From: Strigamia acuminata
Taxonomy: Eukaryota
Length of the DNA stretch: 64,000 bases
Direction: 5' to 3'
NCBI GenBank assembly: GCA_949358305.1
Contig: OX442314.1
Coordinates: forward strand, 33,418,001-33,482,000
The notes under the pieces were generated by a model. It saw only the letters and a program-made list of their open reading frames with translations. It made no database searches and had not been told where the DNA came from. Within the stretch, counting starts at the first letter, position 1; the number at the start of each line of letters is the position of its first letter. The position numbers and the translations under genes are program-made. Shown here in pieces: positions 4,301 to 58,881 of the stretch.

Positions 4301-4301
4301 A

Positions 4302-7540: not shown

Positions 7541-7667
7541 TTTCGGTGTTGATTTTGTAGTTGAATTGCGCAAAGAGAATGGTGGCGCAAAATGGGTAGT
7601 CCTACGGTCTTCCGAGTGACGATGTTGTTGTCCCGTAGAATATCTAATTTAATGAAATCGTTATTGT

Positions 7668-26962: not shown

Positions 26963-27403
26963 AGAGGAGCGAAAAGTGTATCTTAATTATGCGTTTTTAA
27001 GATTTTTCATTCGAAATTCGAAAGTTAGATTACATTGCATCTGCCATGCGGCTAAAAGTTATTCATTTAAAATGGGTACATAACCTTTTTTAAGGTTATT
27101 TCAAAGCTATGAGAGAAATTTTTTATTGCTCTTCCTATGACCTTAAAGGATTTTGAAGAGATTTGAATTTTTTTCCATCGTTTTTTGAATAAAACTCATT
27201 TTTTTGCGGTTTTTTTTAAAAATAAAATTGAATTTTTCATCAATTTTGAATTAAATTGAGTTTTTAAAAAAATGTTTTTGAATCAAATTGAATTCTCAAA
27301 AGATTTACATGAGGCTTTGTGATGTTATTTTGTAAATTTTTAATTTATTAATTCTTTATTAATTCTTTTAATTTTACAGCGGATATCAATATCAAATACA
27401 GAC

Positions 27404-37636: not shown

Positions 37637-38310
37637 ATACTCTGGTTTGACTCAAGAGGGTGCCCTTCTCCCATTGGCCGAGCCGCATTACTCCTACCTC
37701 AAATTTGTATTACTACCACTAGGAGAAGTAGTTTTTATTTTTATTATCATTTGTGATTGCTATAACCATTTAGGTTAATATAATTTCGATTATTTGTATA
37801 CATAAATATTACTTCTTTTAAAGAAATAAAGTTATATGAACATATAAATCAAAAACTCATTTTTGTTTTGTTTATCGGTTTTTTGGTCTGGACCGAACAC
37901 AATTTTTGAAGTATTTATTAGATGCTTTTTCTGGAATAACAAACAAAATGTCAACAAGTAATTATAGCAGTTTCTGTTCATCACCCGATCTTATTAACCT
38001 TTTGGAATTTCCTGTTGTTGGATTACGTAAGCAAGGAACTAGACGTGGTGGCCATGCTCCTTCAATTCCAGTTGCCGAATTTCAAAAATTCAAGAGTGGT
38101 CGACCTATAAATAGGCAGGCGAAACAAATCGTGTTGAATATTTACAACAAAGTTATAAATAATCGATCGCAAATTGGATATAAAAAACTGGAAAAAATTG
38201 TGTCGTGTCTCACTGGAATAGGATTAAATTCCGTACGCAAAATTAGAAAGGAGTTGCTTGATCAGGGTGAGTAAAAAGATTTAATAATTAATATTTAATA
38301 AAAATAAAGC

Positions 38311-38983
38311 TGTCACGATTAATTCTGTTGGTATAATTAATTCCTAACAATATTGCGCAAAAACTAATTCGCGCAATAGTAATGGGCAACGTTCGTAGAT
38401 TTCCCTAAACCTTGTTTCCTTCAAATGAGGACATCCAGAAACTCAGGAAACCTAATACTCGCGTTTGACTAACATAATTTATATTGGACAGTTTTTTGCT
38501 TACGGCGGGTGTTGTAGTCGTAAAAGAATGGAAGCACGATGATATTAACCTAAAGTGGAAAGGGGATATCATCGGGCAGTGATAATATAAAAGATGGCGG
38601 CTTAGAAAATAGCGCAATAGGGTTAGATGTAAGAGCGCTTGTTGAAGGCGCAAATCATAGCAGACTAAATCTAAATGTTACTAAGGGAAATTGGTGTTAT
38701 CCGTTAGAGAGCATAAGAAGAAGTGATTAAACTTAGGATGATTGGAAAGAGGAAAACTCAGTCATGTGACTGGTCAGATCAATTAGAGAAGGGGGTGGAA
38801 AGGTGAAAATAGGAGTTCAATTGTTAAGAATAATGATATGCGCATCATCCAGATTGCGCATTCATTAAATGAAGATGAGTAAGCGAGATGAATCATTACG
38901 AGTGTCAGAAACAAGAAAATATTATAAGAAATAAGATTGGGTTATTCTAAAATAAAAATAGGCGGGTAGACGTGCCCGTGACA
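38311..38983 (-). repeat. 3' LTR of the large Gypsy element
   Basis: TGTCACG...CGTGACA inverted ends; about 6 substitutions versus 58209-58881. Confidence 0.97.
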
Positions 38984-38996
38984 TCCCCCTCCCCTT
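38984..38996 (-). promoter_or_regulatory. Polypurine tract
   Basis: AAGGGGAGGGGGA on the minus strand, abutting the 3' LTR. Confidence 0.92.
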
Positions 38997-39376
38997 AAAC
39001 CTTTATTATAGTTGTTGAAATAAAGGCAAAGAGAGAGAGACTCACTCAGATCAATACAACAATAATACTCTGGGATAAATACAATCAAATCTTGGTTAAC
39101 ATACGAAATAAATGTCTAGATTAACATACTCTTGATTAAATATGATGATTATGACTATTCGGGATCGTCACCAGATAATAATAATAAACAAAAATCAAAA
39201 ATTAACTCATCAGGAAGCTTGAGAATAAATCTACCGACCGACTTGTAAATGAAAATTATAAATCAGTAAGGTTAGGAATAATAAACAAACATTTTCAAAT
39301 AAACTGTATAAAAATCATCGAATAAAGCCTAAACAATTTTTATGGACGAAGACAAGACTAACTAAACACGCGACGC

Positions 39377-39449
39377 CAGGGCCGTTTCGACCTATGAGGC
39401 AAAGAGGCGGCCGCCTCAGGCGGCACACTGACAGGGGCGGCATAGAAAT

Positions 39450-39480
<31 letters not shown>

Positions 39481-39542
39481 GGGGGGGGGGGCGGCATTTT
39501 TAATGCTCGCCTCACCACAGATATTTACTAGGAACGGCCCTG
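39377..39542. mobile_element. hAT-type MITE in the Gypsy 3' UTR
   Basis: Same as 6040-6205; TSD CGCGACGC. Confidence 0.9.
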
Positions 39543-40496
39543 CGCGACGCTCACAGGAGGACATGGACTAAATCTTTTAGGATTGGACGGACTTGAGGCT
39601 ATACACTTTAGTTCAATTTCAGCACAATAAAAATATTTTACCCATTTGCTTGTAAAACGAAGCAATAAATTTCTACGCGGATAAATTTTAAACACGAAAA
39701 ATATACAACTAAAGAACGTCACAAGAGAATTTATCTTACGAACAGGGGGTTTTATTCGGATTGGATACCTTTAAGGAATATGGCGCAAATAAATGCGCAA
39801 AACAAAACAAGGTAAGGGATACGATACATGAATGTACACTTAACATCAGGTAGGTATATAAGGAATGATGGGAGAAATAAACGTAAAACATGAAAATTGC
39901 GCAATATTGGCGCGATAAACAAAAATATAAACATGACACTATTTGGAATCATCAAAGGAAAACAATAAAAATGGGGATAAAGGCATCCTCATGCACAACC
40001 GGACCGGTTGCCACGGGAAAATTATCACGGTTAGAAACATTAGGCATTATGAAAATTGAATAAATACTAAATTTGAAAAATCACAATAATATATCACAGT
40101 TATGAGTATCACAAATAATTATCACTATCATGACCTATTCCAGTAATTCAAATGATACAAACTAAAATTAAACGTAATCATCTCAATTTGAGGAATTTTA
40201 AAAATTAGAATAATTTCTGGAATAAATCAGGATTTAAATTCAAAATTATCACAATATAATGAAATTATAATAATGGGAAATAATAAGAATAAAGGCACTT
40301 TAGACACTAAAAGTCACTAATTGTTCGGCTAACAGTCTGGTCTAAAACGTCAAAAATAAAATATAACTAAATGAAAACACTTCACTTTTTGGAGCACTTA
40401 TCCAGCGGTGATGAAGATCAGATAAATTTGCGCAATAAATGTTTCCAGCAGTCTGTGGAATATTACACTTGTTGAAAAACACTTAGCACAAAATGA

Positions 40497-40877
40497 TGAT
40501 GAAAAACACAAACACAACGGCCAGAACACAAAATCAGTTCCTCAACTCCGTAGAGAAATTTTAGGAGGGCGCTATAAGAAATTGATGCTCTGGGACGTGT
40601 GAGATGAATTTGTATGATGAAATATTTCACTCGCATCCATAATGGTGGCGAGAAACAAAACCAGTTCCGCAACTCCGTAGAGAAATTTTAGGCGGGCGCT
40701 ATAAGGAGTTGTTCTCGGGGCACTAAACGAATAGCTGAGATGAAATACACTTTACTTCTAACTCATATGTGGGGATGAGAATAAGACCAGTTCCGTAACT
40801 CAGATGAGAAATTTTACACGGGCGCTATAAGGAAATATTCTCACATCGTTGAACGAGTAGAAGTGATGAAATACACT
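40497..40877 (-). ncRNA. Putative cis-acting structured RNA array: three tandem long hairpins in the Gypsy 3' UTR
   Basis: Compensatory stems CCUC/GAGG, CCGC/GCGG, CCGU/ACGG and CCAGAGCA/UGUUCUGG, CGAGAACA/UG(U)UUCUCG, UGAGAAUA/UAUUCUCA. cUACGg loop in two units. G-U pairs fit the minus strand only. Confidence 0.7.
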
Positions 40878-41004
40878 TTTCGGTGTTGATTTTGTAGTTG
40901 AATTGCGCAAAGAGAATGGTGGCGCAAAATGGGTAGTCCTACGGTCTTCCGAGTGACGATGTTGTTGTCCCGTAGAATATCTAATTTAATGAAATCGTTA
41001 TTGT

Positions 41005-44000
41005 TTATTGAGAGTTACCCGACAAGGTTCGGTAAGGTGTTGGCATTCGAAATGATTTTATCATGTTTAACGCCACGTTGACCACAACTCTCATCGCGTC
41101 TCGGTAGTTGGTGGCACCTTGCCGGTTAATCTCATTTCTACAATGGTCCAAGAAGAGTTCTCCGTATCGGCGATACAGCGAATTGAGGAGTGGTCTGGCC
41201 TCTTCCGGGCTCATGCGTAGGTCTGCAGATGCGAGGGATTGGAAAAGTTGGCGAACTGACGAAGCAGACATTCCAAATTGGAGGCACGGTCCGTTGGCAT
41301 TCGCAAAATTGCATTCGACCGCAGCTGGTGGCAGAAGGCTGGGGAGCAGCTCCAGGGTGATGCGGGGTGGCGTGTCATCCCAAATTTGCGATCCTTGAGC
41401 CGGTGGAATAGATGGTGCTGTCATCGGGTAAAAACCTGAATCCGTCATCAGATTGCGCAATTCTTGAAGGCGCAATTCATCCGACCGTCTCTTTTCTTCC
41501 TCTTTTTCTGCTTGCTCACGAGCTTTGCGTTCGGCTGCTTTGCGGTGGGCTTCTGCAACTCGGGTTTTTTCCAACTCGTGCTCCGCCTCTCGTTCTTGGC
41601 GTCTTTTCTCCTCCATCATATTATTATAGTCTCTGTTGTCCTGGACTTTGTAAAGGTGGACGGAGATCTCACGATGAAGGGTCCATATCAAGATCTCAAT
41701 TGCGGTTTCGGAGTCGTACGTGCTACACTCGGACATTCGTTTTTCAACTTGTCGCGCAATGTAGGGCCGTTTGTCCATCATTTCTTTTTGGGTCGTGCGA
41801 AAATCTCCTTGGTAGACGCTAAAATCTTCTATCATCATGAAGGTGATGAGTGTGTTCCAGGCCTTCCAGGGGATTTGGAAACGAGTTTGGGAAACTCCGG
41901 GTCCCTTGATGGAGATCTGGACCTCGAATTTGCGCAAGAATTCTTCTACGACTTCCAACGAGTTAACTGGTTTTTGGGTCACTCCATACTTGTCATACGC
42001 CAATTCGCAACGGAAAGCGACTTTTTTAAATGAAAGTCCAGGTCCGATATTTGGAATTGCGCAGTCGAGTCGGGATCGGTAAGGTGATGAGTCCGAAACG
42101 AGAGTCGACGTCACTGGAATCTTTGCGGTGGCAGCCGTTGTGGTGGACATGTTAAAGTTGGCGCCCGACGACGTTGTTGAGGTTACATTGCGCGGGATTT
42201 CATACTAAGGTCGAAATAACTAAGGTCGAAATTATTCCTTTTCATAAAATATTTTCTTAGTCGTATGTAACTAAGGGCGAAATGATTAAAGTCGAAATTA
42301 CACATACCGAAATGACTAAAGTCGAAATGAATAAGGTCGAAATCCTGTTCCTATCTTATTCATGAATAAGGTCGAAATCCTGTTCCTATCTTATTCATGA
42401 ATAAGGTCGAAATGACTAAGGTCGAAATCCTGTTTCGACCTTATTCATGAATAAGGTCGAAACACAACATTTTTATATGAATAAGGTCGAAACACAAAAA
42501 CTCAAAAACACGAGAATTTCACACGATAATCTTGTGTCTTCTCTCGTTCTGTAATAACATAAAAAATGTTTTTAATCACATGTTTTTAGTATTTTCAGGA
42601 AACCAGAGCAGCTTCTAGAACTAACCTTTTCTCATTTATTAAAACTAAAAACACACGTAAAAAATAGTACGAAACTCTATTAAAACTGGAAAAACACGTA
42701 AAAGATCATAACCATGAAAAACCAATTAAAACATAAAAAAAAACCTGAAAAATCACCAAAAAACCGAAAAAAAACTGGGAAAAAAACATTAAAAACCGTA
42801 AAAAAGGGTTTAAAAATGAAAAAAACCCTAATAAATCGTAAAAAAATGATAAAAACGAGTTAAAACCAGTTGAAAACCATGAAAAACAATGAAAAACCAA
42901 AAAAAAATATGGCGTCAATGTGCTGCAGTGAAGCACCGGGTAAATGCGCTAAGCAGCCTGCCGGCACGCATTTTGTAATAGATACGGTGTTTTGGGCAGT
43001 GTTTTTTCCATTGTTTAATCAGGCCAGTGTGTTACCAGTAGTAACCCACTTTATAGTGCCAATTAACTTTCCAAAAAGAAATGAAATCAAAGTCAAAAGG
43101 AAAACAAATTTATTTAGGCTAAAATGAATTTTTTTTTTATTACTTATTTACATAATAAATGAGAAAAATGAGAAAAGGTTAGTTCTAGAAGCTGCTCTGG
43201 TTTCCTGAAAATACTAAAAACATGTGATAAAAAACATTTTTTATGTTATTACAGAACGAGAGAAGACACGAGATTTTGTTTCGACCTTATTCATATAAAA
43301 ATTTTGTGTTTCGACCTTATTCATGAATAAGATCGAAATTACATATAAAAAAATTGACTACAGTCGAATTGACTAAGGTCGAAATCCTGCTTCTTCCTTA
43401 TTCATGAATAAGGTCGAAATAACTAAGGTCGAAATCCTTTTTTTTTACCTTATTCATGAATAAGGTCGAAATTACATATACAGTAATGACTGGGGTCGAA
43501 ATAACTAAGGTCGAAATCCAGTTTCGACCTTATTCATTTCGACCCAAGTATCCCATCCCCATTGCGCCCAGGAAATTGCGCATAAGTAATCGGCGTCACT
43601 GGTAAAGTTGGAATGTTTGAAAGTTTTACCTGTTGGCACGATGAAACTTCGATTGCTGGTGCAATTGGCGAAATCGTGTAGGTTTGTGAAAACACATCGG
43701 CCGAAGCAACAGGGGCAGTCGACGCTGGTAACGGCGACGGTGAAGCTGGAAAAAGATCGGCAGATAAATTTTCATTAATATTTGAATTGTCAGTCTCAGG
43801 ATCAGGAATTGGTGAATTCGGTGTTGATGCTGATAATTGCGCTTTCACTGCTGGTGTCAGTCTAGCGCTCAGTGGCGGTCCGCGTGGCTTGTTGACGACA
43901 GCGCGGGGATCACGTAATCGGGAAGAACCAGGCTTAACAGATGGAATGTCGATATCCCGGATGTCAATCATCTTTCGTTCAAGTCTGCGGACGTCACTGA

Positions 44001-45225
44001 TTTTAGCGGTGGGAACACTACCGCGAATTTCGTTCGTGATGTCCAGAATCGACGGGGTCACACTCATCGTGGATTGTGCATCGAATTCTACAGGTCCAGC
44101 GGCAGCAAGTGAACGTCGAGAATCGTCCATGCTTTCATTGCGCAATTTTTCTTGCGCGGAATCGTCCGCTAGCACTGATGGTTCTGGAATGAATTGCAGT
44201 TGTGGCACTGGTCGAAGCGCCGTCTCTGTTGGTGGAGTTGAAAATTCAACATTAGACACAGTGGAATTGGAGTACAAACTTTCGGTTTCCTCTTTGTCGG
44301 TTACGGTGAGCGTAGCCATTTTCTCGGCCGCTTTGGCAATTGTCTCCGCCGAGGGTCTGGGCACGAATTGTTCCGTCTCCGTGTCTCGAGTAGGATCATG
44401 TGGAAGCGCAGACGATGAGGATGCCAAAGTGTTGCGCACCTTGATGGCTAGTTGCTGCTCTCGATTTGGATTTTGATTCATCGAGCATGGTGGTTTACGC
44501 TGGTAGAAATATGGCAGCGCGGTGTCGGAGTTGTCGTCGATCGTGTTGAGGTCTCCTAGCGACTCCAATGCAATGCTGATCTGTTCTTGAAGACTCGCAT
44601 CGGTCCCTGGGAAGCTGTGAAAGAACTGGGGCAACGTTGGTTGCGCTTCATCCACCTCCCGCTGTTCTTGGTCCATCAGGTCCAAACCGGCGATTTCGTC
44701 GGCGAGCAAATTCGGCACTTGCGCAAAGGTGACGCGCATCAACTCGGCTGTCGGGTAAATCCAATTTCTGGGCACGATTCTCGCCTGTCTCGCCTCTCGC
44801 TGGAGTCGATGCCAATATTTAAAATGACTGGCGCGGAATCTTTGTACCATTGCTGGGGTCCCGTTCGGTGGCCGGAATTGTGGAAACTCCACTCCGATTA
44901 AATATACCTTGTCCTGGACACGACGAAACAGGCACCAGCCATAAATCTGGCGCATCCACACACGATAAAATCCGCGTCGCAGGTCGCCCCGTCCGTCACA
45001 CGCTCGGCACGTCTTAGCCACACCCGAGACAGCAAGTTCATAACCATATCCGGAACAAACCGGACATATTTCGAAGTTGGGAAAGCTCTGTTCACGTGGA
45101 TCGTTCGGATGCCAGCATGGAAATTTAGGCGGTCCGACTGCGTGAAGCGGTGGTTCGGCATAATTTTTCGGATAGGGTTCGCCTGGGAAATCCTCCTTGC
45201 ACCGACATACATGTTTGTCAGCCAT
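41005..45225 (-). pseudogene. Gypsy ORF3: 948-aa protein of unknown function once the MITE is removed (45225-43568 joined to 42193-41005)
   Basis: Junction reads ...YAQFPGRN-VTSTTSSGANFN-MSTTT... with no stop (2847 nt). N-terminal CPVCSGYG...CRACDGRG, Ser/Pro/Thr-rich middle, charged helical segment. Start context ACAACATGG. Confidence 0.88.
42194..43559. mobile_element. Foldback-type MITE disrupting ORF3
   Basis: 8-bp TSD CATTGCGC; inverted arms with AAGGTCGAAA repeats. Confidence 0.9.
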
Positions 45226-45960
45226 GTTGTCTTAACTGATTGAGGTTGTGCCTAATTGATTTCAATTATCTGGTTTATATAAACGAATTCAAACAATAGA
45301 TATATGACAAACGTTACTTACAATTAGAATTGCGCAAATAATGAACGCGCACAAAACATAACACACGAAGTTTCAACACATGATGTTAATCCATAGAAGA
45401 AGAGTGCACGAGTATCAAACGCTTCGAGAACTTTCTCACACAGGTGTCATAAAAGCACATGGGTATAAAGTGTGGGTGTTTGAGGTTAGTCGTAACTGTT
45501 TCAATAGAACGACGAACTCTAGTGTGGGGAATTGGAAGTTAACGAAAGATTGTAAATGAATGTTCTAGAAGAAGTAATCAAATTTAACGTTTGTCTTCAA
45601 TGAAAAAGTTTAGCATATGCAAATCTAGATACGCATAGACACATAAAACTAAATTGAAATAATAAATTGGAAAAAATAAACAATCTAAACACGTGGTGTT
45701 TTGAAAATTCAATTATAAGTGTCACACTCTAGTGGACAATCTTGTCCCTACTAGAAATGGACTTAGTCAATTTTGAAACGAATAAATATGAAACGTAGAA
45801 CGAATAACATAAAACATAAAATATTTAAGAATAAAGAAACATAAAAACATAAATGAAATTTTTTCTTCAAAGTTACGATGAAATTACACCGGATTACATT
45901 GGATTTTTTTTTTTGTTTTCTTTTTTTTTTTTTTTTTTTTGAAAAAATAATCGGAAAAAA

Positions 45961-46988
45961 TTATTTGAAAGAAAGAAAATAAGCAGTGAAAATATCTAGT
46001 GTGTTAGCAGTATAGTTTTCGACATGCTTGTCGATAATTTCGACATCTTTTAAGGTTAGGAAATTAATTTGCGCAAAATGCCAATGGCGAAGTTCAACAA
46101 CGTTGTATGGTTGTGTTTTTCTGCCATTTTGGTCCATTAAGATGACAGTGTTGGGGCCCACCAATTTGTGAATGATATAGACTCCCTCAGTTCGCTGGCG
46201 TAAGCCTGCTGCAAACTGTCTGTCGGCGGAAGAGGGTTGCCGATTGCGCAACCTTACCCAATCGCCAGGACGAAAATCGTGTGCGCGACGATTCAAATCG
46301 AACCATTTTTTGTGGCGGATCTGGGATTCGCGCAAATTGTTCATCGCCCTTTCTCGCATGGTGGTAAAGGTTCCCCATCATCTGTGTCACTATCAATGTC
46401 ACCAGGGAATCTGGCTTCTTGGCCTGTAACTAACTTAAATGGAGAGTACTTTAACGAAATTTGATACGCCAAATTGATTGCCAAAACAAAATAACCGATA
46501 TTTACATCCCACCTGTCGTGGTCGTCTATGTAGGCCAAAATGCAGTTCTTTAAGGATTGGTTCAGGCGTTCGGCAATATTGCCTTGGGGGTGGTATGCTG
46601 CAGTGTAGCGGTTTACTGCGCCTAATTGCTGGATTTGGCTGCGAAACTCAGGTGATCGAAAAGCAGGGGCATTGTCGCTGATTATAATTTTGGGGAAACC
46701 CCAACGTTTCGTAAATTTCTGAATTTGCGCAATTGAAGTTGCGATGGTCGAATCTTCCGTTAGTCTTACGTCTAACCAACGACTCGCTGAGTCGACCATT
46801 ACGAAGGCATAGCAATGGCCGCCCACTGAACGTGGTTTTTTGCCATAGTAATCAATGTATATTGCGGAAAACAAGTGGCGCGCTCTCGACATTATCATTT
46901 TGCCATAAGGCAAGCGATTTAATGGTTTCGCGCGTTGGCAAGCCTCGCAAACCTGGATCCATGTTTGGACATCTTCTCTCATTTTGGG
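45961..46988 (-). pseudogene. pol: Integrase core and C-terminus of the large Gypsy pol
   Basis: CEACQ, IDYYG, SDNA and AERLN (D,D35E) motifs. Preceded by TGA at 46989-46991 where the conserved Trp is expected; frameshift near 46350. Confidence 0.92.
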
Positions 46989-49210
46989 TCAATAAACACG
47001 CGTCTTTAAACGATGGAGGGTTTTTTCTCTTCCCATGTGTCCCACTACTGGAGGGTAATGCATTGCGCGGAAATATCGTTCGCGCAATTCCAAGGGGAGA
47101 TAAATTTGACGCCTTTTGCGTATTTCATTAATGTGGACTGGTGGAAATCGACACAACATATCTTTATGCATACCAAAATTTTGCGCGCCTTTTTGAACTT
47201 GCGCAGCTTCGACTGGATCGACCGGCAGCATTTGAGCAGTTAAGTAGAATATCAACTCACGCGACCATGGATCTTGTCTCTGAGCAGCTATTATTTCAGC
47301 GGCATCTGGTAACATTTCAAATGGTGGATGTTCAATGGGTGGATCGTGTTCCAATTCAGCCTGTTGTTCCGCTTCAGTGAGCCTTCTGTCCGATTCTGTA
47401 AATGTTCGTTCAGATCTCGGGCGTAGCCTTGTCGGAGTTTGAGGCATTCCACCTCTTGGCACTGGATATTCCACCGGCGAAGGAAAGTCTCGGATCGGAC
47501 TAAAACTGTCAGTGTCTGATGACGAAGTGTCAGAGTCCGGCTCGGAAGTGTATCCATCGGGGCGTTGTTGTCCAGAGGGTCCTGGTCCGGGGTCGAACAC
47601 TGGGGGCACAGTCGGTGCTGTATCAGTTGTTGTTGACGGCGAAGACACAGGAGAGGTTGGAGGAATAGGAGATGGTGATATTGGAATGGGTTGAGTAGGA
47701 GAAGGTGTGGGAAAATTTGGAATTTGGATAGATGTTGATTTTGGTGTAGGTTTTGGCCTTGGTGGCAAAATATGAGAAGGAATTCCAGCTGACTTTCGGG
47801 GTCGTCCTTTAGGTCTAGGAATTGGTGGAGTTGGTATTTTGGAAACAGGAGTTGGTGTGGAAATAATTTTTTTACGAGGAGGTAGAATATGGGAAGGAAT
47901 TCCAGATGACTTTCTGGGTATTCCTTTTGGTTGTAAAGTAGGGAGAGTTGGAGCTGGAGGAATGGAAATTTCTGATTTGCTTGGAGAACTGGGTTGGTTA
48001 GGGAGCGTAGGAGCAGGAATAAGAACAGGAACAGGACTGGGAGGTGCTGTGGGAATGGGGGAAACCACTAAACGAGGTGTTTTTGGCGTCCTTTTACCTT
48101 TTCCAACTTTCTGTGCTTTTAGCAATTTTGGATGTTTCCATTTCTTAATATTAGCTCCATATCTCGGTAATTTTGGAGATATTTTCGGAACCAAAGTGGG
48201 GTCTCTTAATCGAGCTCGAGTTCTTGTCGCAATAGCACGTTTGGCACGAGGGGAGAGCACTGGAATTATCATAATCTTACGTGGTCGTCCTCTTTTCTTC
48301 GTCAATATTGGAATTAATGAATGTTGTCTGCGCGTACGAAGTGGCACTGAAACACGAACTGATGGAGAATTAGGTGAAATTACTGGTGATGTTACTGGAG
48401 TTGTTTGTTGAGTTGGTTGCGCAACTGGAGTTGGCGCAGTTGATGGTGTCGTGCTCACAGTAGTTCGACGAGGAATGAGGGATTTCCTTTTTCCTTTCGT
48501 TTGTTTAGTCGGTGAAATGGCTGAAATTAAAGTTGATTTAATAAATTTATCTTTAAACATTTTCTTAAACTGTCTATTAATGTCTTTTGGCAACTCGGAG
48601 ATGATTGACAATGCTGGCCATTGATTTCCGTCGTCGAAGTACGCCATATAACACGCTTCATCGACGAGTGGACTGTCATCTTCCTCGTCATATTCGGGTG
48701 GGTCGACCGGTGCTCGACTTAATGCGTCGGCCACTCGATTCTTGCACCCTGAGCAGTGTAGGAACGTGAATTTGTATTCGCTTAGTGAGAGTACCCAACG
48801 AGCAAGTCGGCCCGTTGGCTCTCTTTGCTGAAATAACCACTTCAAAGAACGATGATCACTCTCTAAATAAAATGGCATCATTTCTAAATAAGCGCGGAAA
48901 CGTTTCACTGCCCACACGGCTGCTAGGCACTCAATTTCAGTCACATTATAGTTTTTCTCAGCACTGTTAAGCGCACGAGAAGCGAAAGCTATTGGTATCC
49001 TTTCTCCTGCGTCATTTAATTGCATTAAAGCCGTCCCCAAACCGGAGTAGCTTGCATCTGTTTGAAGGATGAATGGCTTTTTCCAGCTGGGAAAACGTCT
49101 CTTTAGCGTTGGAGTCGCTATTTGATCTTTAAGATAATCAAAAGCTTCTTGTTGCGCTTCGTTCCAATGCCAAACGGCATCTTTTTTAAGTAATGGTCGG
49201 AATACCTCAC
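46989..49210 (-). pseudogene. pol: RT connection, RNase H, long low-complexity insert and integrase zinc-finger start of the large Gypsy pol
   Basis: LQTDASYSGLG, ECLAAVWAVKRF, SDHRSL and ADALSR motifs, then about 450 aa rich in P/T/S/K/R, then H.PPVVGHMG.EKT. Confidence 0.92.
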
Positions 49211-52200
49211 TGTAGTGTTGCGTACAACTGTCAATAGCTGGCGCTGTCAGCATGATCACCTGGCGGCGCATGGCATTTGATCACATGCTGAATAAAGCTG
49301 AGTAATCAGTTCATCACCTGAATGCATCGCGTCCACTTCCTTTGCGTAGCTAGAACCTCACATTGGCGACGAGGATAAACAGAATGCTAAATCCAGTGCC
49401 ATCAAGTATTTTGGAATAAAATTTGGACAGTTGCAGAGACTATTACGATGGCAACCGGGTTAAATTTGCCGACAGTGGCAAATTTCGTGTTAAGTGACGG
49501 TAATTTGGACCAAAAATGGAAAAAATGGTCAAGTGCATTTGAATTCTATTTGTTGGCGGCAAATATCGTCGAGGACACTCAAAAAAAGGCTTTGTTGTTA
49601 CATCTCGCCGGTCAGGACGTGCAGGACATATATGGGACGTTTGGGATGAAAGATAAGAAGAATTATGATGCGACCGTGACAGCACTGGCGACATATTTCA
49701 ATCCGCGCAAAAATTTGCGTTATGAACGCCATATTTTTCGCCAGCAAGCGCAGGATGGCGCCGAATCGATGGACACATACGTGACGAGGCTTAAAACACT
49801 AGTGAAAACATGTGAGTACGGCACTTTAGAAGATGATTTGTTAGTTGATCAAATTATAGAAAAAGGCCGAGATAAGGCATTAAGACGCAGGTTACTACGT
49901 GAAGAGACAGTCACATTGGATTCGGTGTTAAAAATGGCGCGAGCTGCCGAAGCGAGCGAAAAACATGCCGTTTTGATGGAGCGAGATGGAGGAGCGAAAA
50001 TTAAAGAAGAAGACGTGAGTCAAATACGAGAGGAGAAGAAATCGTTTAGAGGAAGAGGAACGAAGCGAGCCGGAAGTCAATTCCGAAAATCTGGAGCAAA
50101 ACCACAAAATATCGGCGATCGGCAGGGAAGCAAACCGCGAGAAGGTGCGGAGTGTTTCCGTTGTGGCCGTGCAGGTCATCTGGCCAACGAGTGTACCATT
50201 GCGAAGGACAAAGAATGTGGATTCTGCCACAAGCTTGGGCACTTTGCGAAGGTTTGCCGAATGAAAAATGCAACGCCGGGACGAGGTCGAGGTGCGAAAG
50301 ACCGCGTACAATACGTCGGCGTGAGTGGAAGTCCAGATGGATATGACAGTGATTGCTCGTTTCGAATAGCGACGTCGATGAAGGAGGACTGTGTAAGAGT
50401 GACAATCGCGCAACAGGAGGTAAAAATGCTTATCGATTCGGGTTCGTCAGCGAACTTGATAAACTTAGAAACATGGAACTTATTGAAGAAGCGAGGAGTG
50501 ATTGCACAGCCATCCACGACGACGTTGTATGCGTACGGTATAAAAACTCCTTTAAAAATAAGTGGACAATTTTTTGCAGAAATTAAGAAAGGAGATCGAA
50601 CAGTTAATGCGAAATTTGTGATCGTTCCGTCGGGAGATGTGTCGTTGCTGAGCAGGCGGACTTCAAAGGAACTAGGGGTGTTGAAAATAGAAGAAGAAAT
50701 AATCCGTTCCGTGGAGGAGAACGCTGCACTGGACGAGACATTGCTTGGAGTACGGGGCGAGTTAGCCGATAAAGTGAGAAAACATCGAAATTTATTTGTA
50801 GGAATCGGAAAATTAAAGGACTATGAGCTGGAACTTTACATTGACGAAACAGTGAAACCAGTTGCACAGAGTGTACGACGTATACCGTTTCACATTCGCA
50901 AACAGGTGGATCTGGAAATCGATAGACTGCTCGCCGAGGATATCATCGAACCGGTGACCGGACCGACAGACTGGGTGTCACCTATGGTCCCAGTGAAGAA
51001 AGCGGACGGGACAATCCGAATCTGCTTGGATATGCGAGCCGTCAACCAAGCGGTAAAGCGCCGGCGCCATCCACTTCCAACAATGGAAGAAGTTTTGGAA
51101 GAAATTGATGGGGCCGAGGTGATTTCCAAACTCGACTGCAGATGGGGGTATCTGCAGATACCGCTGCGAGAAGATTCACGTAAATATACGGTTTTTGTAA
51201 CCCACCGTGGGTTATTTCGTTATAAAAGACTTTTCTTCGGGATTGCTTCGGCACCCGAAGAGTATCAGCAGATTGTCCAGACTATTCTCGAGGAATGCGA
51301 GGGGACGAAAAATAGTCTGGACGACATTGTCGTTCACGGCAAGACAGTCGCGGAGCACGACGCGAGGCTGGTGAAAGTGTTAGAAGTCCTAGAGAAGAAT
51401 GGACTAACTTTGAATGCTAAAAAGTGCTGTTTCGGACTAACTAAGTTGAATTTTTTAGGTCATGTCATTTCTAAACACGGGATTTCAGTGGCCGACCAGA
51501 AAATCAAAGCGGTGAAGGATGCGAGTTCACCGAAGACGGAGACGGAAGTGCGTAGTTTCTTGGGTTTGGTGAATTATTGCGGAAGGTACATCAAGGACTT
51601 TGCCACCCTAGCGGAACCGCTGCGAGTAGTCACGAGGAAAAGCGGAGGTTTTAAGTGGGGCAAGGAACAAGAGAAGGCGTTCGTGTTGTTGAAGGAGGCG
51701 CTTTGCAGGGCCGAGACGTTGGCATTTTTCCGAAAAAATGCGCAGACGAGGTTGATCGTCGACGCGTCTCCAGTCGGGCTCGGGGCGGTCCTCGTGCAGC
51801 GACAGACGGACGGACACAACCAACCAATTGCGTACGCGAGTCGTACGTTATCCCAAGTTGAGCGCAGATACAGCCAAACGGAGAAGGAGGCGCTCGCAGT
51901 CGTTTGGGGCTGCGAGCGTTTTCGAATTTACCTCATCGGATTAGCGTTCGAATTAATTACCGACCATAAAGCGTTGGAGGTAATTTATTCAGTAAAGAGT
52001 AGGCCATCGGCGCGCATCGAAAGATGGGTATTGAGGCTTCAACCTTTCGAGTTTTCGATACGGCACAAGCCGGGATCGACGAACATCGCAGATGCCCTTT
52101 CGCGACTACTTCCAGAAGGGGAAGGAAAAACCATAGTTGGAGAGACAGAGAAGCATGTTCATTTTATTATGGCGAATGCAGTACCGAAAGCGATGACTCT

Positions 52201-53871
52201 GGAAGAAGTGAAATTGGCGTCACGGAACGATACCGAAATATGTGCTATTTTGGATTGCGTGAAACGAGAGAAGAAGTTTAGCAAGGAATTACAACGTTTT
52301 GAAATAATGAGACATGAATTATCGGCGAAGTCGGGAGTTTTGTTGCGAGGAACACGCATTGTAATGCCGAGAAGCTTGAGGAAGAAAGTCATTAACATTG
52401 CACACGAAGGTCACCAAGGAATTGTTCGCACCAAACAGCGATTACGACAGAAAGTATGGTGGCCGGGAATGGACGAAGAGGTGAAAGCAGTAGTTCAACA
52501 ATGCCGGGCATGTCAGTTTGGAGGCGCAACGGAGAAGGCAGAGCCGATCCGAAGTACTGTTTTGCCTAAAGGACCTTGGCGGAATTTAGCCATCGATATT
52601 TGCGGACCGTTCGACGATGGACGTTCAATCGTGGTACTCGTGGATTATTATTCGCGCTGGCCGGAAGCGGCAGTGTTAAAATCTACGAGAGCGGAGAAGT
52701 TAATCGAGTGGTTGGAGCAGGTATTCGAGAATTGGGGTTTACCAGAGAGTATAACGTCGGACAACGGGCCCCAATTTGTTTCGGGTGAATTTCGGACATT
52801 TATGAAGGACCTGGGGATACAGCATCGAAGGGTAACACCGTATTGGCCTCAGGCCAATGGCCAAGTTGAACGCCTGAATAAATGCTTCGTGAAAGCGTTT
52901 CGTGCAGCACGCGTAGAAAACCAGGGTTGGAAAAAGAGTCTGGGAAAATTCTTACAGAGCTACCGTAGCACGCCGCACCGAACGACAGGCGCGACGCCTT
53001 TTGAACTGATGACGGGACGGAAAATGCGTGATAAAATCCCGCAAGTATTACAAGAACAGAAGGGCAAGTTGCATCGAGAGGTGAAGATGAAAGATGCAAT
53101 TGAAAAGAAGAAGACGAAAGATTACGCGGATGCGAGAAGGAAAAGCGAGGAAAACACCATTTCCATTGGAGACAGTGTGTTAGTTTCCAAGCCAAGGAAG
53201 CATAAGCTTGACACGGCATTTGAAGAAGGAGTAGCGATAGTCCAGCGGAGATCCGGAAATGCGGTGCTCTTAAGAATGCCAGATGGGAGATGTGTAAAGC
53301 GAAATATCTCGCACGTGAAGCGTTTCATACCGATTGAAGACGATGAGTTGCTGCTGCCAATACCAAACAACAGAGCAGATGCGTTAGAGGAGATTCCAGA
53401 AGCAGAGATGGATGCACCACAGCCTGTGGCACCCCCAGTGCGAGACGAACCACCATTGCGGAGGTCTGCCAGAGAGCGACGTCCACCAGACTTCTTAGGA
53501 ATCGCGAAGTGATGACAAGGAAGTGTTGTTTAATGAATTTACGATGAATAATATTGCTAAAAGAATTCTTTATTAATTGTTCAGGCCTGAACCAAAATTG
53601 TTAGAGTTACGAATTAATGAGATATGTAGAATCGATTAATTTTATTGTCGTTATATAATTTAATTTATATGTTTTATTATTTCCTCCTATGGAGGTTAAT
53701 TGTTAAAGAAAAAGAGTGATGTAGTGTTGCGTACAACTGTCAATAGCTGGCGCTGTCAGCATGATCACCTGGCGGCGCATGGCATTTGATCACATGCTGA
53801 ATAAAGCTGAGTAATCAGTTCATCACCTGAATGCATCGCGTCCACTTCCTTTGCGTAGCTAGAACCTCACA
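49211..53871 (+). mobile_element. Intact Mag-like Ty3/Gypsy LTR retrotransposon (4661 bp) nested antisense in the host pol
   Basis: 152-bp LTRs (49211-49362, 53720-53871) with no differences seen; 5-bp TSD CTCAC; PBS TGGCGACGAGGAT (tRNA-Ser(GCT)-type); PPT AAAGAAAAAGAGTGA. Confidence 0.97.
49448..53512 (+). CDS. gag-pol: Single-frame Gag-Pol polyprotein (1354 aa)
   Basis: Two CCHC knuckles, protease LIDSGS, RT (RLFFG, SLDD), RNase H (VDAS, EKEALAV, TDHK, ADALSR) and integrase HHCC + D,D35E; no stops. Confidence 0.97.
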   Translation: MATGLNLPTVANFVLSDGNLDQKWKKWSSAFEFYLLAANIVEDTQKKALLLHLAGQDVQDIYGTFGMKDKKNYDATVTALATYFNPRKNLRYERHIFRQQAQDGAESMDTYVTRLKTLVKTCEYGTLEDDLLVDQIIEKGRDKALRRRLLREETVTLDSVLKMARAAEASEKHAVLMERDGGAKIKEEDVSQIREEKKSFRGRGTKRAGSQFRKSGAKPQNIGDRQGSKPREGAECFRCGRAGHLANECTIAKDKECGFCHKLGHFAKVCRMKNATPGRGRGAKDRVQYVGVSGSPDGYDSDCSFRIATSMKEDCVRVTIAQQEVKMLIDSGSSANLINLETWNLLKKRGVIAQPSTTTLYAYGIKTPLKISGQFFAEIKKGDRTVNAKFVIVPSGDVSLLSRRTSKELGVLKIEEEIIRSVEENAALDETLLGVRGELADKVRKHRNLFVGIGKLKDYELELYIDETVKPVAQSVRRIPFHIRKQVDLEIDRLLAEDIIEPVTGPTDWVSPMVPVKKADGTIRICLDMRAVNQAVKRRRHPLPTMEEVLEEIDGAEVISKLDCRWGYLQIPLREDSRKYTVFVTHRGLFRYKRLFFGIASAPEEYQQIVQTILEECEGTKNSLDDIVVHGKTVAEHDARLVKVLEVLEKNGLTLNAKKCCFGLTKLNFLGHVISKHGISVADQKIKAVKDASSPKTETEVRSFLGLVNYCGRYIKDFATLAEPLRVVTRKSGGFKWGKEQEKAFVLLKEALCRAETLAFFRKNAQTRLIVDASPVGLGAVLVQRQTDGHNQPIAYASRTLSQVERRYSQTEKEALAVVWGCERFRIYLIGLAFELITDHKALEVIYSVKSRPSARIERWVLRLQPFEFSIRHKPGSTNIADALSRLLPEGEGKTIVGETEKHVHFIMANAVPKAMTLEEVKLASRNDTEICAILDCVKREKKFSKELQRFEIMRHELSAKSGVLLRGTRIVMPRSLRKKVINIAHEGHQGIVRTKQRLRQKVWWPGMDEEVKAVVQQCRACQFGGATEKAEPIRSTVLPKGPWRNLAIDICGPFDDGRSIVVLVDYYSRWPEAAVLKSTRAEKLIEWLEQVFENWGLPESITSDNGPQFVSGEFRTFMKDLGIQHRRVTPYWPQANGQVERLNKCFVKAFRAARVENQGWKKSLGKFLQSYRSTPHRTTGATPFELMTGRKMRDKIPQVLQEQKGKLHREVKMKDAIEKKKTKDYADARRKSEENTISIGDSVLVSKPRKHKLDTAFEEGVAIVQRRSGNAVLLRMPDGRCVKRNISHVKRFIPIEDDELLLPIPNNRADALEEIPEAEMDAPQPVAPPVRDEPPLRRSARERRPPDFLGIAK

Positions 53872-55354
53872 CTCACTTGTCTTGGAAAAGTTCGCAATAA
53901 AAGATTGATAATAACCCACCATACCTTTGAAACGTTGTAACTCGCGCAAATTTGTTGGCGCAGGATAATTTTGGATAGCTGACACTTTTTTTGGATTTGG
54001 AGAAATTTGACCAGATTCCACGATGTGGCCCAGAACTTCGAGGCGCTGTTGACAGAGCTCGGTTTTGTTGGCGTTCATGGTGAAACCGGCGTCAAACAGT
54101 TCTTCCAAGACGAGGCGCAAATGTTGAACATGCTCCTCAAATGTTTTGCTAAAAATAATAACATCATCAATGTATACAAATACAAATTTGTACAAATATT
54201 TGGCCAAGGTTTTGTTCATCGCTCTTTGGAGTGTTGCAGGGCCGTTGATGGGGCCAAAGGGCATACGAACGTATTCAAACAGTCCTCTATGTGTGATGAA
54301 GGCCAAGAATCGCTCATCTCCCTTGCGCACTCCGATCTGGTGAAAGGCCTCGCGCCCGTCGATTATCGAGAACCAATGTGCACCTCCTAAATACGCAAAT
54401 ATATTGTCTATATCCGGAAGTGGATACACATCCGGAATTGTTTGCGCATTTATGGGTCGGAAGTCCATCGCTGTTCTCCATTCTCCGGTCTTTTTGGGCA
54501 CGACCACTGGAGCGACGGCGCAATCACTTTGTGAACGGCGAATTATACCTTGTTGTAGTTTCTTATCGATGTATCTGTCAATAATTGCCTTTTTCGCAGG
54601 GTTTACAGGTCGTACTGGCACATGAATCGGACGAAAATCCGGTTTCAAATTAACCTCATATTCCGTATTATTACATAAACCGATTTCCTCACGGAAAATC
54701 TGCGAAATTGGCTGGAAAGTTTCTATTAGTAGTTTAATTTGCGTAATAGTCAAATGGTTCCATAACTGGTGGTAAATCCAATCGAGATCGGTCGGATTCT
54801 CACTGGGCTGGTACTGTAAAAAGTTGATGTTGTTAACAATTGGATTTGAGTCATTCTCACCATTATCAGGTTGCGGAGAGGCGTTGGTGTTGTTGATTAA
54901 CTTCTTTTTGTCGTTAATATCCTTTGGCTCGTTGCGCAATCAATAGTTTGGCGATGGGACAAATAACATTCAATTTGTGACGAAGGCGGCGCAGTCGGCG
55001 AAATTGACTTAATGTTAACTTACGAGAAATGATTTTCTTTACTTTACTCGAAGCTCTCGCAGTTTCCTTCCGCTTTGGTGACCAAACATTTGACCACGTC
55101 GTTCGACTGCGGTGCCTAATTGTCTTTATTTGACGTTGTGAGTCGTCGTTCGGATACTCAAAAACCTCATTTTTCAATGGTTGATGTAATAGCAACACAC
55201 AGTTAATGTCATTGGGTGGGGGTGGTCTCTTGAGTATTTTATTTGGAACAATCTCACTTATTTTAGCTGATGGAGTTGCTGATTTATCCAGTTCCTCCGG
55301 TGCCATTGGTAATACGAGAATTGACTCGGATTTTTTGGCGTCTTCATAGGTCAC
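53872..55354 (-). pseudogene. pol: Reverse transcriptase of the large Gypsy pol, with upstream linker
   Basis: WRTAMDFRPIN, YPLPDID, RMPFG and YIDDVIIFS motifs; frameshift near 54930. Rejoins 49210 as NFSKTSE|VFRPLLKK when the nested element is removed. Confidence 0.95.
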
Positions 55355-55357
55355 GAA

Positions 55358-56287
55358 TTAACGAATTTCGTCTGAGCCAGCCAAGCTCCACTGGCTCCGT
55401 CCATGATCGATGGTTGCTCCGACTGCTTGATTAAAGTCTCGTCCGAGGATCAAGTCATTTTTGGCATCAGGCAACACTAAACACACGAATTTTACTACTC
55501 CTAATGGCGCTCGCAACGCAAGCGTCACTGATTTTGAGGCAGTAACTACATGTCCAGAAGCGACCTGTACTTTTTCATGTAAATTAATAAATTCGAGTCC
55601 CATTTTTTCGTGAAGTTGTTGAAATAATTCCTCGCTCATGATACAAGTTTGAGCACCTGAATCTAGAAGCGCGGTAAATGATACGTTTGCCCAAGATATT
55701 TTTACGCATGGAGCTTCTCTGCGCAATCTATCTGCGCGTGTTATCTCAATAATTGGTTCTTGAGATTCTCTAAGCTCTTCCGATGTCAACATGACAAAAG
55801 ATACCTTCATTGGAGCGATCACTTCCTTGGGCGCTTCCGCTGAATTGACACTGGAAGTAGTCTTAATAATGGGTAATTTAAGGTTTTTACTCACATTCTT
55901 GGTGATTTGTTTCTGTGCAGTCGCAATTTGCAAAGCTGTCGACTTCGAAACAGGTCCAGATGCTAGTTGGAAAGCCACAGGTTGCAAAACTGAGGTTTTC
56001 CTTTGATTCGTCACTGTCGGTGATGAAGATGAAGATGTGGACGATACAACACTAATTCCGGGTTTAGACTCACGAGGAGTGACAGAAAGAGTAGTTGTTA
56101 CTGGAATAATCCTATCGGAAATGTTCTCGTCAAGGGTGATGTCGGGTGGAGCACGTCTTGTTGATTCCACACGTTTTACGCTTGTGGAGACCGGTTGGTT
56201 TACTTGCGGCCTGGTTCCGCCGGTCGAGGAAACTTCAGGCCGTCGGAGTTTTCCTGCCTCTCGAAAACTTTGTAGCACACAGGACAA
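55358..56287 (-). pseudogene. pol: Aspartic protease region of the large Gypsy pol (-1 frame relative to gag)
   Basis: LLDSGAQ and LILGRDF motifs; an in-frame TAA at 55358-55360 interrupts pol. Confidence 0.9.
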
Positions 56288-58107
56288 ATAGGGCGCCAGG
56301 TTGAGTTTTCAATCATAAACCACCAATCCTTTTTTGTTTTGCGCCAAGCTGCACCTTTTTCGGGAAACTTGACACTTGTTGGAGGTTTTGGTGATGACGG
56401 AAATGTAACAACGGAGGTAGAACAGACATGGTCCTTTGGGAGATCTGCAGGGGGCGCAATTGTGGTTGAATTTACTGAAATGTTCACCTTTTGCGCAGCT
56501 CCGGCGACAGAACTCTTTTTGGTGTCCACTTCCGGTTCCGACTCGCTGCTGCTACTTGAATTTGGTTCCTGTGGCGGCGAAGGTCGCTCAGGTCGGGCTT
56601 CCAGCGCAGCTAGTTCTAACATAAGTTGTTGTTTACGATAGCGCGTAAAACGTCTGGCGTCGTTGGACGTGGAAGGTTTAGGTTCGGCTTCACCTCTGGA
56701 CTTGTCCACGGATTTCAACACGGTGGGGGATGAGGGGTTTGCTTCTGAAAAAGGTGCAAACTGATCAACGAGACCCAAGTTTTTATACTCAGTTTTGCGG
56801 TGAGAGTCGAGTAGTAGTCGATTGTCCACGTCGTTTCCCATTTGAATTGCTTCGTCAATTGTTTTGACGTGCATTGTTCTCAAAAGTTGGACAACGTCGG
56901 ACAACAGCATGTTCTGTGCTTTCTCCCATTGTAATCCAGGGTCTGTGTAGCCTGCAATTTCTAAATAGTATATTATTTCGCTGAGGAAAGTCATGGTGGA
57001 TTCTCCACTGCGTTGCTTGCGATTTGCTATTTTCACGTTGGCAGCCGCTGAATTCATGGAGAATGCCTTACGAAACAATGCCTCGAAATCATTCCACGTT
57101 TTGGGTTTTGGTTTAAGTGCCAACCACCAACGTTGCGCCTTATTACGGGTTGCTTGAATTATATTTACTTTCAAATACTCCTCCTCGGGCATGCGTGTGG
57201 AATACATATGCGCATATAATTGCGCAAGAAACAAATTAACAGAGTCAAGTGTAGCCTTCTCAGGGTCAAAGTATGGGAGTTTTTCCTTATAATTGTTATA
57301 TCCTCGGGAAGAGTCCTCTCGTCTTACTCGAATTGATGGTAGAGACAATTGGGCCCTTACTTCGGATGGGTGCCCTGTGTTGTTAATTTTGGCACATAAT
57401 AAAGAATTCATCACCTGCTGATTGGCTTTTGTTGAATCCACAATTTGTGATGCCACGGACGGACATTGAGTAAAAGTAGTGGCCTGCGTCATTACCGGTG
57501 GCGTTGTTGTTGTAGACGTCGGTTGCGCAGTGATGGTTGTGGGCGCAATTTGTTGTTGGTGGCTCGCTCCTCCACACTGAGGAACTTCCGTGGAAAGTTC
57601 ATTTCCTAATGGTGCCGAATTGCCTATTACCCTTATGGATCCATGAGAGGACCCACCATCCTCTGACGGGGGTGTCGTCGGACGTGGAGGGCTAGTGCCT
57701 TGTTGGTAAATGCTACGCATTTCTTTGAGTAATCCCTGTGCTTGAACGAAAAACTGATTACGAATATCACACATCAATAAAGCTTCGGAATGTAAAATTG
57801 CCGGATTCATTGATATTCCTGACACGCCAGGAGTGAAGAAAGCTGGAGGCACGAGCTGATACGCTGGTGTTGACGTGGCAACTGTCGTTGGCGCAGAAAT
57901 GTTTACGCCAGGTATTGGAGCCGACATGTTGTCGCGAAAAGTTTGCGGCATTGAATTCGCAATGGTTATCAATAACTCACTTTGTTCCGCTCGTGCTCGC
58001 CTTAAACGCTCATAACGATGCCAGTCGAGAGACGAAGCCAGCTCGTCCAAATCAAAGGGGTCTCTTACAGTGGGGTTTTCCTCACCGTTTCCCAACTCAT
58101 TCGACAT
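56200..58107 (-). CDS. gag: Gag of the large Gypsy element (635 aa)
   Basis: First ORF after the PBS; capsid-like motifs KAQRWW...TWNDFEALFRKAF...RKQRSGES. No intact CCHC knuckle. Confidence 0.88.
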   Translation of the reverse strand: MSNELGNGEENPTVRDPFDLDELASSLDWHRYERLRRARAEQSELLITIANSMPQTFRDNMSAPIPGVNISAPTTVATSTPAYQLVPPAFFTPGVSGISMNPAILHSEALLMCDIRNQFFVQAQGLLKEMRSIYQQGTSPPRPTTPPSEDGGSSHGSIRVIGNSAPLGNELSTEVPQCGGASHQQQIAPTTITAQPTSTTTTPPVMTQATTFTQCPSVASQIVDSTKANQQVMNSLLCAKINNTGHPSEVRAQLSLPSIRVRREDSSRGYNNYKEKLPYFDPEKATLDSVNLFLAQLYAHMYSTRMPEEEYLKVNIIQATRNKAQRWWLALKPKPKTWNDFEALFRKAFSMNSAAANVKIANRKQRSGESTMTFLSEIIYYLEIAGYTDPGLQWEKAQNMLLSDVVQLLRTMHVKTIDEAIQMGNDVDNRLLLDSHRKTEYKNLGLVDQFAPFSEANPSSPTVLKSVDKSRGEAEPKPSTSNDARRFTRYRKQQLMLELAALEARPERPSPPQEPNSSSSSESEPEVDTKKSSVAGAAQKVNISVNSTTIAPPADLPKDHVCSTSVVTFPSSPKPPTSVKFPEKGAAWRKTKKDWWFMIENSTWRPICPVCYKVFERQENSDGLKFPRPAEPGRK

Positions 58108-58188
58108 GATGAAAAAATAATGAAAATGATTAATAATTTAAACGAAAACTTAACTTTCTTGCGCGTTTTCAGCCTAAATAAGCGAGGA

Positions 58189-58205
58189 TCCTGTCAGGCT
58201 CGCCA
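58189..58205 (-). promoter_or_regulatory. Primer-binding site, tRNA-Arg(ACG)-like
   Basis: TGGCGAGCCTGACAGGA, 3 nt inside the 5' LTR. It resembles the complement of the 3' end of animal tRNA-Arg(ACG); the tRNA identity is from memory. Confidence 0.75.
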
Positions 58206-58208
58206 TGT

Positions 58209-58881
58209 TGTCACGATTAATTCTGTTGGTATAATTAATTCCTAACAATATCGTGCAAAAACTAATTCGCGCAATAGTAATGGGCAAAGTTCGTAGATTT
58301 CCCTAAACCTTGTTTCCTTCAAATGAGGACATCCAGAAACTCAGGAAACCTAATACTCGCGTTTGACTAACATAATTTATATTGGACAGTTCCTTGCTTA
58401 CGGCGGGTGTTGTAGTCGTAAAAGAATGGAAGCACGATGATATTAACCTAAAGTGGAAAGGGGATATCATCGGGCAGTGATAATATAAAAGATGGCGGCT
58501 TAGAAAATAGCGCAATAGGGTTAGATGTAAGAGCGCTTGTTGAAGGCGCAAATCATAGCAGACTAAATCTAAATGTTATTAAGGGAAATTGGTGTTATCC
58601 GTTAGAGAGCATAAGAAGAAGTGATTAAACTTAGGATGATTGGAAAGAGGAAAACTCAGTCATGTGACTGGTCAGATCAATTAGAGAAGGGGGTGGAAAG
58701 GTGAAAATAGGAGTTCAATTGTTAAGAATAATGATATGCGCATCATCCAGATTGCGCATTCATTAAATGAAGATGAGTAAGCGAGATGAATCATTACGAG
58801 TGTCAGAAACAAGAAAATATTATAAGAAATAAGATTGGGTTATTCTAAAATAAAAATAGGCGGGTAGACGTGCCCGTGACA
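58209..58881 (-). repeat. 5' LTR of the large Gypsy element
   Basis: 673 bp, about 99% identical to 38311-38983; followed by TSD AAGC. Confidence 0.97.

Follow-up and report, generated by a model that had tools for sequence, protein, structure and literature searches.

Open reading frames (ORFs) that follow pol but do not encode an envelope protein (Env) have been described in long terminal repeat (LTR) retrotransposons of rotifers (PMC5408684), plants (PMC11963269, PMC7264820), insects (PMC11952523) and an ostracod (PMC7998251), and are reviewed in PMC6431247. The complete Ty3/Gypsy element analysed in this paper is a variant of this known kind. It occupies 38310-58880 on the minus strand of a 64-kb window of Strigamia acuminata DNA (contig OX442314.1, positions 33,418,001 to 33,482,000; the window is this whole stretch, and all coordinates are counted from its first letter). 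Its third ORF (ORF3), sense to pol and in the position of env, is split by an insertion in this copy. Uninterrupted copies carry ORF3 as a single frame under purifying selection and free of Env features, and the palindrome TTGCGCAA is in element-specific excess, coding DNA included. ORF3 is tentatively viewed here as an orphan accessory gene whose soluble product may regulate the element through its own TTGCGCAA-marked DNA.

Among animal LTR elements, Juno and Vesta of bdelloid rotifers likewise carry a separate sense non-Env ORF after pol, whose products can be recognised as GDSL lipase, DEDDy exonuclease, membrane or coiled-coil types (PMC5408684), whereas the ORF3 examined here, 948 amino acids (aa) long, shows neither an enzyme nor a membrane signature, and searches found no homologue of it. 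The plant elements Retand and Ogre share a long region between pol and the 3' LTR, an extra ORF and tandem repeats, and a DNA-binding regulatory role has been proposed for their extra ORFs too (PMC11963269, PMC7264820). These are reported as mostly antisense TRP28 ORFs (PMC11963269, PMC7264820); ORF3, in contrast, is sense, has no TRP28 match and resides in an animal host, and the repeats behind it are predicted to form conserved RNA hairpins. The MDG1 group of Drosophila consists of insect Gypsy elements that lack Env and have accessory ORFs (sORF1, sORF2), sometimes downstream of pol, but these are described as ~60-110 aa long, and sORF2 as a membrane fusogen (PMC11952523), unlike ORF3.

A case of self-recognition by an element-encoded protein is VANC21, whose short binding motif distinguishes its own family by density (PMC5735166). 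VANDAL elements likewise combine a dense, family-specific short motif with an accessory protein; however, they are DNA transposons, their motifs lie in non-coding tandem repeats, and both binding and demethylation have been demonstrated (PMC5735166), whereas the present case is a retroelement in which the motif is scattered through coding DNA, binding is hypothetical and no homology to VANC was found. Foamy viruses carry soluble accessory genes, Tas and Bet, near the 3' end that are expressed from an internal promoter, and Tas binds the DNA of its own element (PMC4929722, PMC13220597), BTas binding both the LTR and the internal promoter (PMC4929722). A foamy virus, however, is a retrovirus with Env and a small accessory protein; ORF3 has no sequence match to it, and its internal promoter is a candidate. 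In the literature, as judged by titles and the beginnings of abstracts (Repbase and Dfam entries lying outside the search), no animal Gypsy ORF3 of such build, no TTGCGCAA arrays in a retrotransposon and no AT-hooks between RNase H and integrase were found. That a transposon protein can counter silencing in a sequence-specific way is established in plants for DNA transposons (VANC), and the literature search gave no animal LTR case.

A single selected frame split by an insertion

Two minus-strand frames are involved: 43534-45231, which encodes 563 aa counted from an ATG at 45225, and 41005-42204, in which an internal ATG opens 381 aa. Between them lies an insertion of 1366 bp (42194..43559), bordered on both flanks by an identical 8-mer (42186-42193 and 43560-43567). 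The reading phase is equal on either side, and by arithmetic the joined ORF3 comprises 948 codons, in agreement with the original prediction, which had fused the two frames in just this way. The same prediction termed the insertion a miniature inverted-repeat transposable element (MITE). The insertion and its 8-bp target duplication hold good; however, its size, the match of 10 of 14 terminal bases and the sub-terminal repeats inside it indicate a non-autonomous DNA transposon other than a typical small MITE.

Copies free of the insertion, which the original prediction had proposed to look for, were found. Contigs from three of four public runs (X1, X2, X3; two studies) omit precisely 1374 nt at the insertion site, while the fourth run (X6) covered 5 of 30 bins of the stretch only. 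These joints indicate that uninterrupted ORF3 copies exist in nature. The contigs aligned at 85-100% likeness number 1648, 3156 and 824 in the three runs (X1, X2 and X3, respectively), indicating a family with many diverged copies, contig depth not being equal to copy number. A second ORF3 copy in the window (7668-11894) lies in a 12.3-kb duplicate (476-12810 matching 33812-46147 at 99.9% identity) and shows no difference across the ORF; therefore, it does not serve as independent evidence. This duplicate spans the 3' half of the element and 4.5 kb of flank, and is either a recent segmental duplication or an assembly artefact.

Among the copies, 45 substitutions were observed in ORF3: 28 synonymous, 17 non-synonymous and none creating a stop. 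These were drawn from the best-supported 40 of 772 rows (14 substitutions) and the best-supported 40 of 271 rows (37 substitutions) with six overlaps removed, so the sample is not random, and two changes within a single codon were counted separately. The synonymous share of 28/45 exceeds the 0.30 that the observed spectrum of mutations predicts, giving a ratio of non-synonymous to synonymous polymorphism (pN/pS) of ~0.26 (p 6e-6), far from the value near 1 that would have spoken against the original prediction. In aa 1-240, 16 of the 21 listed changes are synonymous (pN/pS 0.13), indicating that the signal is carried by the start of ORF3. Insertions and deletions are also frame-keeping. Six of the 12 listed (of 13) fall inside ORF3: one contig has changes of 2 and 4 bases at equal depth, three others measure 6, 3 and 6, and the sixth, from a contig of low depth aligned 289 to 289 letters with two gaps, is a single base. 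The six listed outside ORF3 are all single bases. ORF3 is thus under purifying selection.

The predicted ORF3 protein

The first part of ORF3 (43568..45225, minus strand) comprises a Cys/His-rich start with a CxxCxGxG pair, a predicted sheet and helix, an acidic segment and a long S/T/P linker; the second (41005..42185, minus strand; partly predicted) holds the end of the linker, a helical domain, a long E/R/K-rich helix, a short linker and a helical C-terminus. The CxxCxGxG pair named in the original prediction is present at aa 54-80, as CPVCSGYG at aa 54 and CRACDGRG at aa 73, whereas the segment SFKKVAFRC...FQIPWKAWNTL, described there as globular-looking, is predicted with low confidence to be mostly helical. 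Peak 19-residue hydropathy reaches 0.87 and 1.04 in the first and second halves, no window exceeding 1.6, and by this measure neither half contains a membrane helix or anchor. Within the first 30 aa the 7-residue peak is -0.01, and by this crude hydropathy measure no signal peptide was detected. Furin sites (R-x-K/R-R) are absent from both halves. Lacking signal peptide, membrane helix and furin site, ORF3 is judged not to be Env, as had been anticipated from its sequence. Pfam and fold searches, the latter on poor structure models, matched ORF3 to no viral fusion protein.

The sole match of ORF3 is the DnaJ cysteine-rich domain (1exk, E 0.0056, aa 45-89). Compared with type I DnaJ/Hsp40, two of the four CxxCxGxG repeats are present, the Pfam score is 17.7 bits against a cut-off of 32.7, and no J domain match was found in either half. 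The layout of DnaJ suggests that two CxxCxGxG repeats can make one zinc site. AlphaFold2 models built without alignments gave, for the first 240 aa, a mean predicted local distance difference test score (pLDDT) of 37.1 with a three-strand sheet at aa 85-113 and a helix at aa 136-147, the segment aa 85-147 being basic and aromatic; the second part (pLDDT 54.9) was predicted to contain short helices, a single helix of 90 residues and a helical end. In fold searches with both models the matches were generic only, to long helices or small sheets, indicating neither a known nor a new fold. A Pur-alpha fold match (Z 2.6, root-mean-square deviation 5.5, 69 aligned residues) was tied with unrelated rows and came from the model of pLDDT 37. 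The PC4/PUR and MBD-like identities suggested by inspection of the sequence were unsupported. Single-sequence folds of this quality are too poor to assign a function.

Searches for relatives gave a similar picture. None was found for the second half in longer proteins or among 1.84 billion representatives, and none for the first 260 aa among proteins of near length, a shallower search than that for the second half. Neither domain matched the ESM Atlas, and the second matched no PDB sequence. ORF3 was likewise without a match in phage genomes, in viral contigs and in the 120 reverse transcriptase (RT) homologues considered below, and a PHROGs search gave weak cysteine-motif rows only. The integrase of the element also had no relatives in metagenome or viral contigs. 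ORF3 is therefore predicted to be a soluble non-Env accessory protein with no detectable host or viral parent. To this extent, with selection added, the accessory soluble protein of the original prediction is retained, and none of the three outcomes named there as refuting it was obtained.

The palindrome, the hairpins and their possible readers

Palindrome TTGCGCAA is dispersed over 38353..57227 at 15 places (38353, 39897, 40428, 40903, 41453, 41930, 44138, 44719, 45330, 46069, 46244, 46725, 48417, 54932 and 57220), compared to 0.51 expected in the 13,676 element bases under a second-order model, and GCGCAA half-sites on either strand number 64 against 10.1. One TTGCGCAA was found in 30,781 bases outside the element. 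Neither the 1366-bp insertion nor the nested Gypsy element (49211..53871), which served as control for the motif counts, contains any; all these comparisons were made within the window. The sites and the hairpins pointed out in the original prediction are real. The lone palindrome beyond the element and its duplicate lies at 58988, ~100 bp outside the 5' LTR.

Ten of the 15 sites are held in coding frames, in two phases, and another stands just upstream of ORF3. After synonymous-codon shuffling, the ORFs of the element would hold 11.0 half-sites and 0.68 8-mers; 41 and 8 were observed, and none of 1000 shuffles was as high. The nested control showed no excess (3 half-sites vs 3.7), while ORF3 alone has 16 half-sites against 3.9. 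This excess beyond shuffling indicates that it is the nucleotide sequence of the motif that is maintained. None of the 13 listed tandem arrays covers a TTGCGCAA site, and one of the 70 listed between-copy variant places falls in a half-site against 2.0 expected, a comparison without power. A kissing-loop role in RNA was rejected, as the sites are no more unpaired than controls (0.31 vs 0.43). The palindrome is likely read by the ORF3 protein or by a host factor.

Under the tentatively favoured reading, ORF3 would be made from its own subgenomic RNA and would enter the nucleus. A flexible linker would connect a zinc-binding N-terminal domain with a helical C-terminal one, and these two domains would bind TTGCGCAA directly or via a host C/EBP-type protein, thereby activating the element or protecting it against silencing, as foamy-virus Tas or plant VANC do. 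The hairpins would act separately, at the RNA level. In favour of this reading are the uninterrupted copies, the selection and frame-keeping indels, the lack of a membrane segment, the motif excess and its persistence after codon shuffling, the site just ahead of ORF3, and the precedents of VANC21 and BTas. The union of ORF3, palindrome and hairpins in one module is a hypothesis.

Several observations weigh against this reading. No bZIP basic region (N-x7-R), leucine heptads or corresponding Pfam match, no DNA-binding fold and no simple nuclear signal were found in either half of ORF3. Its one recognisable motif, the DnaJ-like pair, is not of a kind known to read specific DNA sequences. The canonical C/EBP identity of TTGCGCAA means that a host factor alone could select the motif, and the AT-hook-like motifs in pol make integrase another candidate DNA binder. 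VANC motifs lie in non-coding tandem repeats, which TTGCGCAA does not. CpG is not depleted (1.13 in the element, 1.17 around it), leaving no methylation scar to counter. Regular spacing speaks for the reading over eleven consecutive sites, ~545 bp apart (coefficient of variation 0.32, P 0.001, allowing for choice of the run but not for its length), but the spacing of all 15 is not significantly regular (P 0.10). Finally, the linker (8/16 synonymous, p 0.09) and the second half (4/8, p 0.18) lean the same way as the start of ORF3 but are individually not significant.

A host C/EBP-type factor might instead read the motif alone, ORF3 having an unrelated role; this alternative is possible, if somewhat improbable. 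C/EBP proteins tolerate related 8-mers. In the element, there is one TTGCGTAA and no TTACGCAA, TTGCACAA, TTGTGCAA or TTACGTAA, compared to 15 perfect palindromes, and this near-absence suggests a reader stricter than C/EBP. The sites are also spread throughout all coding frames instead of being clustered in the LTRs. On the other side, TTGCGCAA is described as the canonical C/EBP motif (PMC4333159), its flanks favour A/T-TT-GCGC-AA-T, and no result ties ORF3 to DNA.

Even with a host reader, it would be unusual, and would need explaining, that the coding DNA of an entire retroelement has such a motif imposed on it. In its most far-reaching form, the favoured reading implies that an animal LTR element has written a palindrome into itself at roughly half-kilobase intervals, coding DNA included, and encodes its own reader, ORF3, as a new protein family, with a separate three-hairpin RNA signal; taken as a whole this is improbable, but if true it would place VANC-like self-recognition inside a retroelement. 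The element pairs an orphan selected protein with a sharply defined candidate site.

ORF3 could also act on RNA. Three 127-nt units (40500..40885, minus strand), each a long sense-strand hairpin with a common apical core, lie 120-500 nt past the ORF3 stop. Fold z scores are -2.45, -1.96 and -2.31 on the sense strand against -1.57, -0.83 and -0.71 on the antisense. The outer stems are divergent in sequence, yet all three units fold, and in the common 11-pair core 33 of 33 cells are paired, both partners having changed in 3 of the 11 pairs. The compensatory changes are suggestive only, since covariation as high was seen in 26 of 500 shuffles and there are three units. None of 18 weak Rfam matches falls inside the array, and the core pattern recurred at three metagenome loci, all with the same unrelated sequence, which lacks both the stem and retroelement genes. 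An antisense TATA-promoter reading of the units was set aside, as a common variant at 40827 alters the TATAA of unit 1 and pairing favours the sense strand.

Export, translation and packaging elements are found at such positions, and by analogy the array would fit a signal of this kind. Export-type elements can recruit host factors without any viral protein. The view that ORF3 is a Rev/Rex-like factor of export, translation or packaging binding the three hairpins draws on their placement, better sense-strand folding and kept core, as well as on the basic, aromatic sheet-helix segment at aa 85-147. Against it stand the borderline covariation from three units, the failure to find an RNA-binding fold in ORF3 and the ability of such elements to do without a viral protein, and it is judged unlikely.

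Less probable still is a cytoplasmic role, either as a scaffold or chaperone-like partner of Gag or Pol or in suppressing small-RNA silencing by binding to host proteins. The DnaJ-type cysteine motif (E 0.0056), the long disordered linker and the long charged helix would suit it, and a chaperone role has been proposed for extra ORFs of plants (PMC7264820). However, the J domain and two of the four cysteine repeats are lacking, and the motif and the hairpins would be left unexplained. That ORF3 is a degenerate Env or a recent, decaying host or viral capture, as its env position, its sense orientation and the reported frequency of gene capture downstream of pol (PMC6431247, PMC5408684) might suggest, is very improbable and largely refuted by the missing signal peptide, membrane helix and furin site, the purifying selection, and the 16 half-sites (vs 3.9) by which ORF3 shares the motif excess of the element and so has had a long evolution together with it.

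Architecture of the element and other features of the window

The gene order seen by Pfam profile matches is that of Gypsy (gag, protease, RT, RNase H, integrase), and the element has two TG...CA LTRs, a 4-bp target duplication, a primer-binding site and a polypurine tract. Its LTRs, primer-binding site, genes, candidate promoter and polypurine tract lie on the minus strand. The 5' LTR (TGTCACG...CGTGACA, ~673 bp, 58208..58880) is 99.1% identical over 673 bp to the 3' LTR (38310..38983), and the primer-binding site, identified from sequence, begins with TGG and adjoins it (58190..58207). Gag (56200..58137) matches Retrotrans_gag at E 0.0012, under the curated cut-off, and has no CCHC knuckle match. 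The protease frame (55358..56308; Asp_protease_2, E 4e-8) overlaps gag in a different frame and has an in-frame stop at its end. RT (53872..54939; RVT_1, E 2e-30) shares 34-44% identity with the best 120 of 364 homologues, nearly all unnamed; therefore, the lineage of the element is divergent. RT is interrupted by the nested, unrelated Gypsy element (49211..53871, plus strand), which has identical 152-bp LTRs and a single, apparently intact 1373-aa gag-pol frame.

The region 46989..49205 contains, in order, RNase H, a P/S/T/K/R spacer of great length that bears two AT-hook-like motifs, and the integrase zinc finger. The RNase H-integrase spacer measure is 573 aa, compared to a median of 142 and a maximum of 320 in 77 of the 120 homologues. 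The spacer with its AT-hook-like motifs (47100-48750) is possibly a chromatin tether for integration. Integrase core and C-terminus (45961..46988; rve, E 1e-10) are broken here by an in-frame stop at 46989 and an indel near 46360. The candidate internal promoter or leader (45226..45340) was recognised by promoter-like sequence words, TTGCGCAA, TATATAAA, TCAGTT and CAAC standing ahead of the ATG; its TATA-to-initiator spacing is non-canonical. The 3' untranslated part contains a 174-bp insertion (39369..39542) with CAGGG ends and an 8-bp duplication, omitted by contig joints in runs X1 and X2, and the polypurine tract follows at 38984..38996, as identified from sequence. With a second Gypsy element inside RT, stops and frame changes in pol and two DNA insertions in the 3' half, this copy is dead. 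An end related to that of the 174-bp insertion sits at 26853.

In the duplicated flank, a 314-aa frame (34723-35667, minus strand) and shorter frames at 37151-38274 have no Pfam match, and a 22-bp tandem repeat array (13084-13347) lies shortly past the end of the duplicated block. The plus strand at 14814-15257 resembles an exon from an amiloride-sensitive (DEG/ENaC) channel gene; together with the MATH-domain frames described below, it points to an animal host. Two inverted arms of ~950 bp (18932-19887 and 30070-31010), 94% alike, ~10 kb apart and accompanied by 54-bp and 35-bp tandem repeats, enclose an apparently shortened Mutator-like element (MULE) transposase frame (27344-28576, plus strand) and possibly represent a large foldback-type element. 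Beyond the 5' LTR, two tandem frames with TRAF-type MATH domains (61027-61593 and 63118-63642, minus strand) are ~70% alike in DNA.

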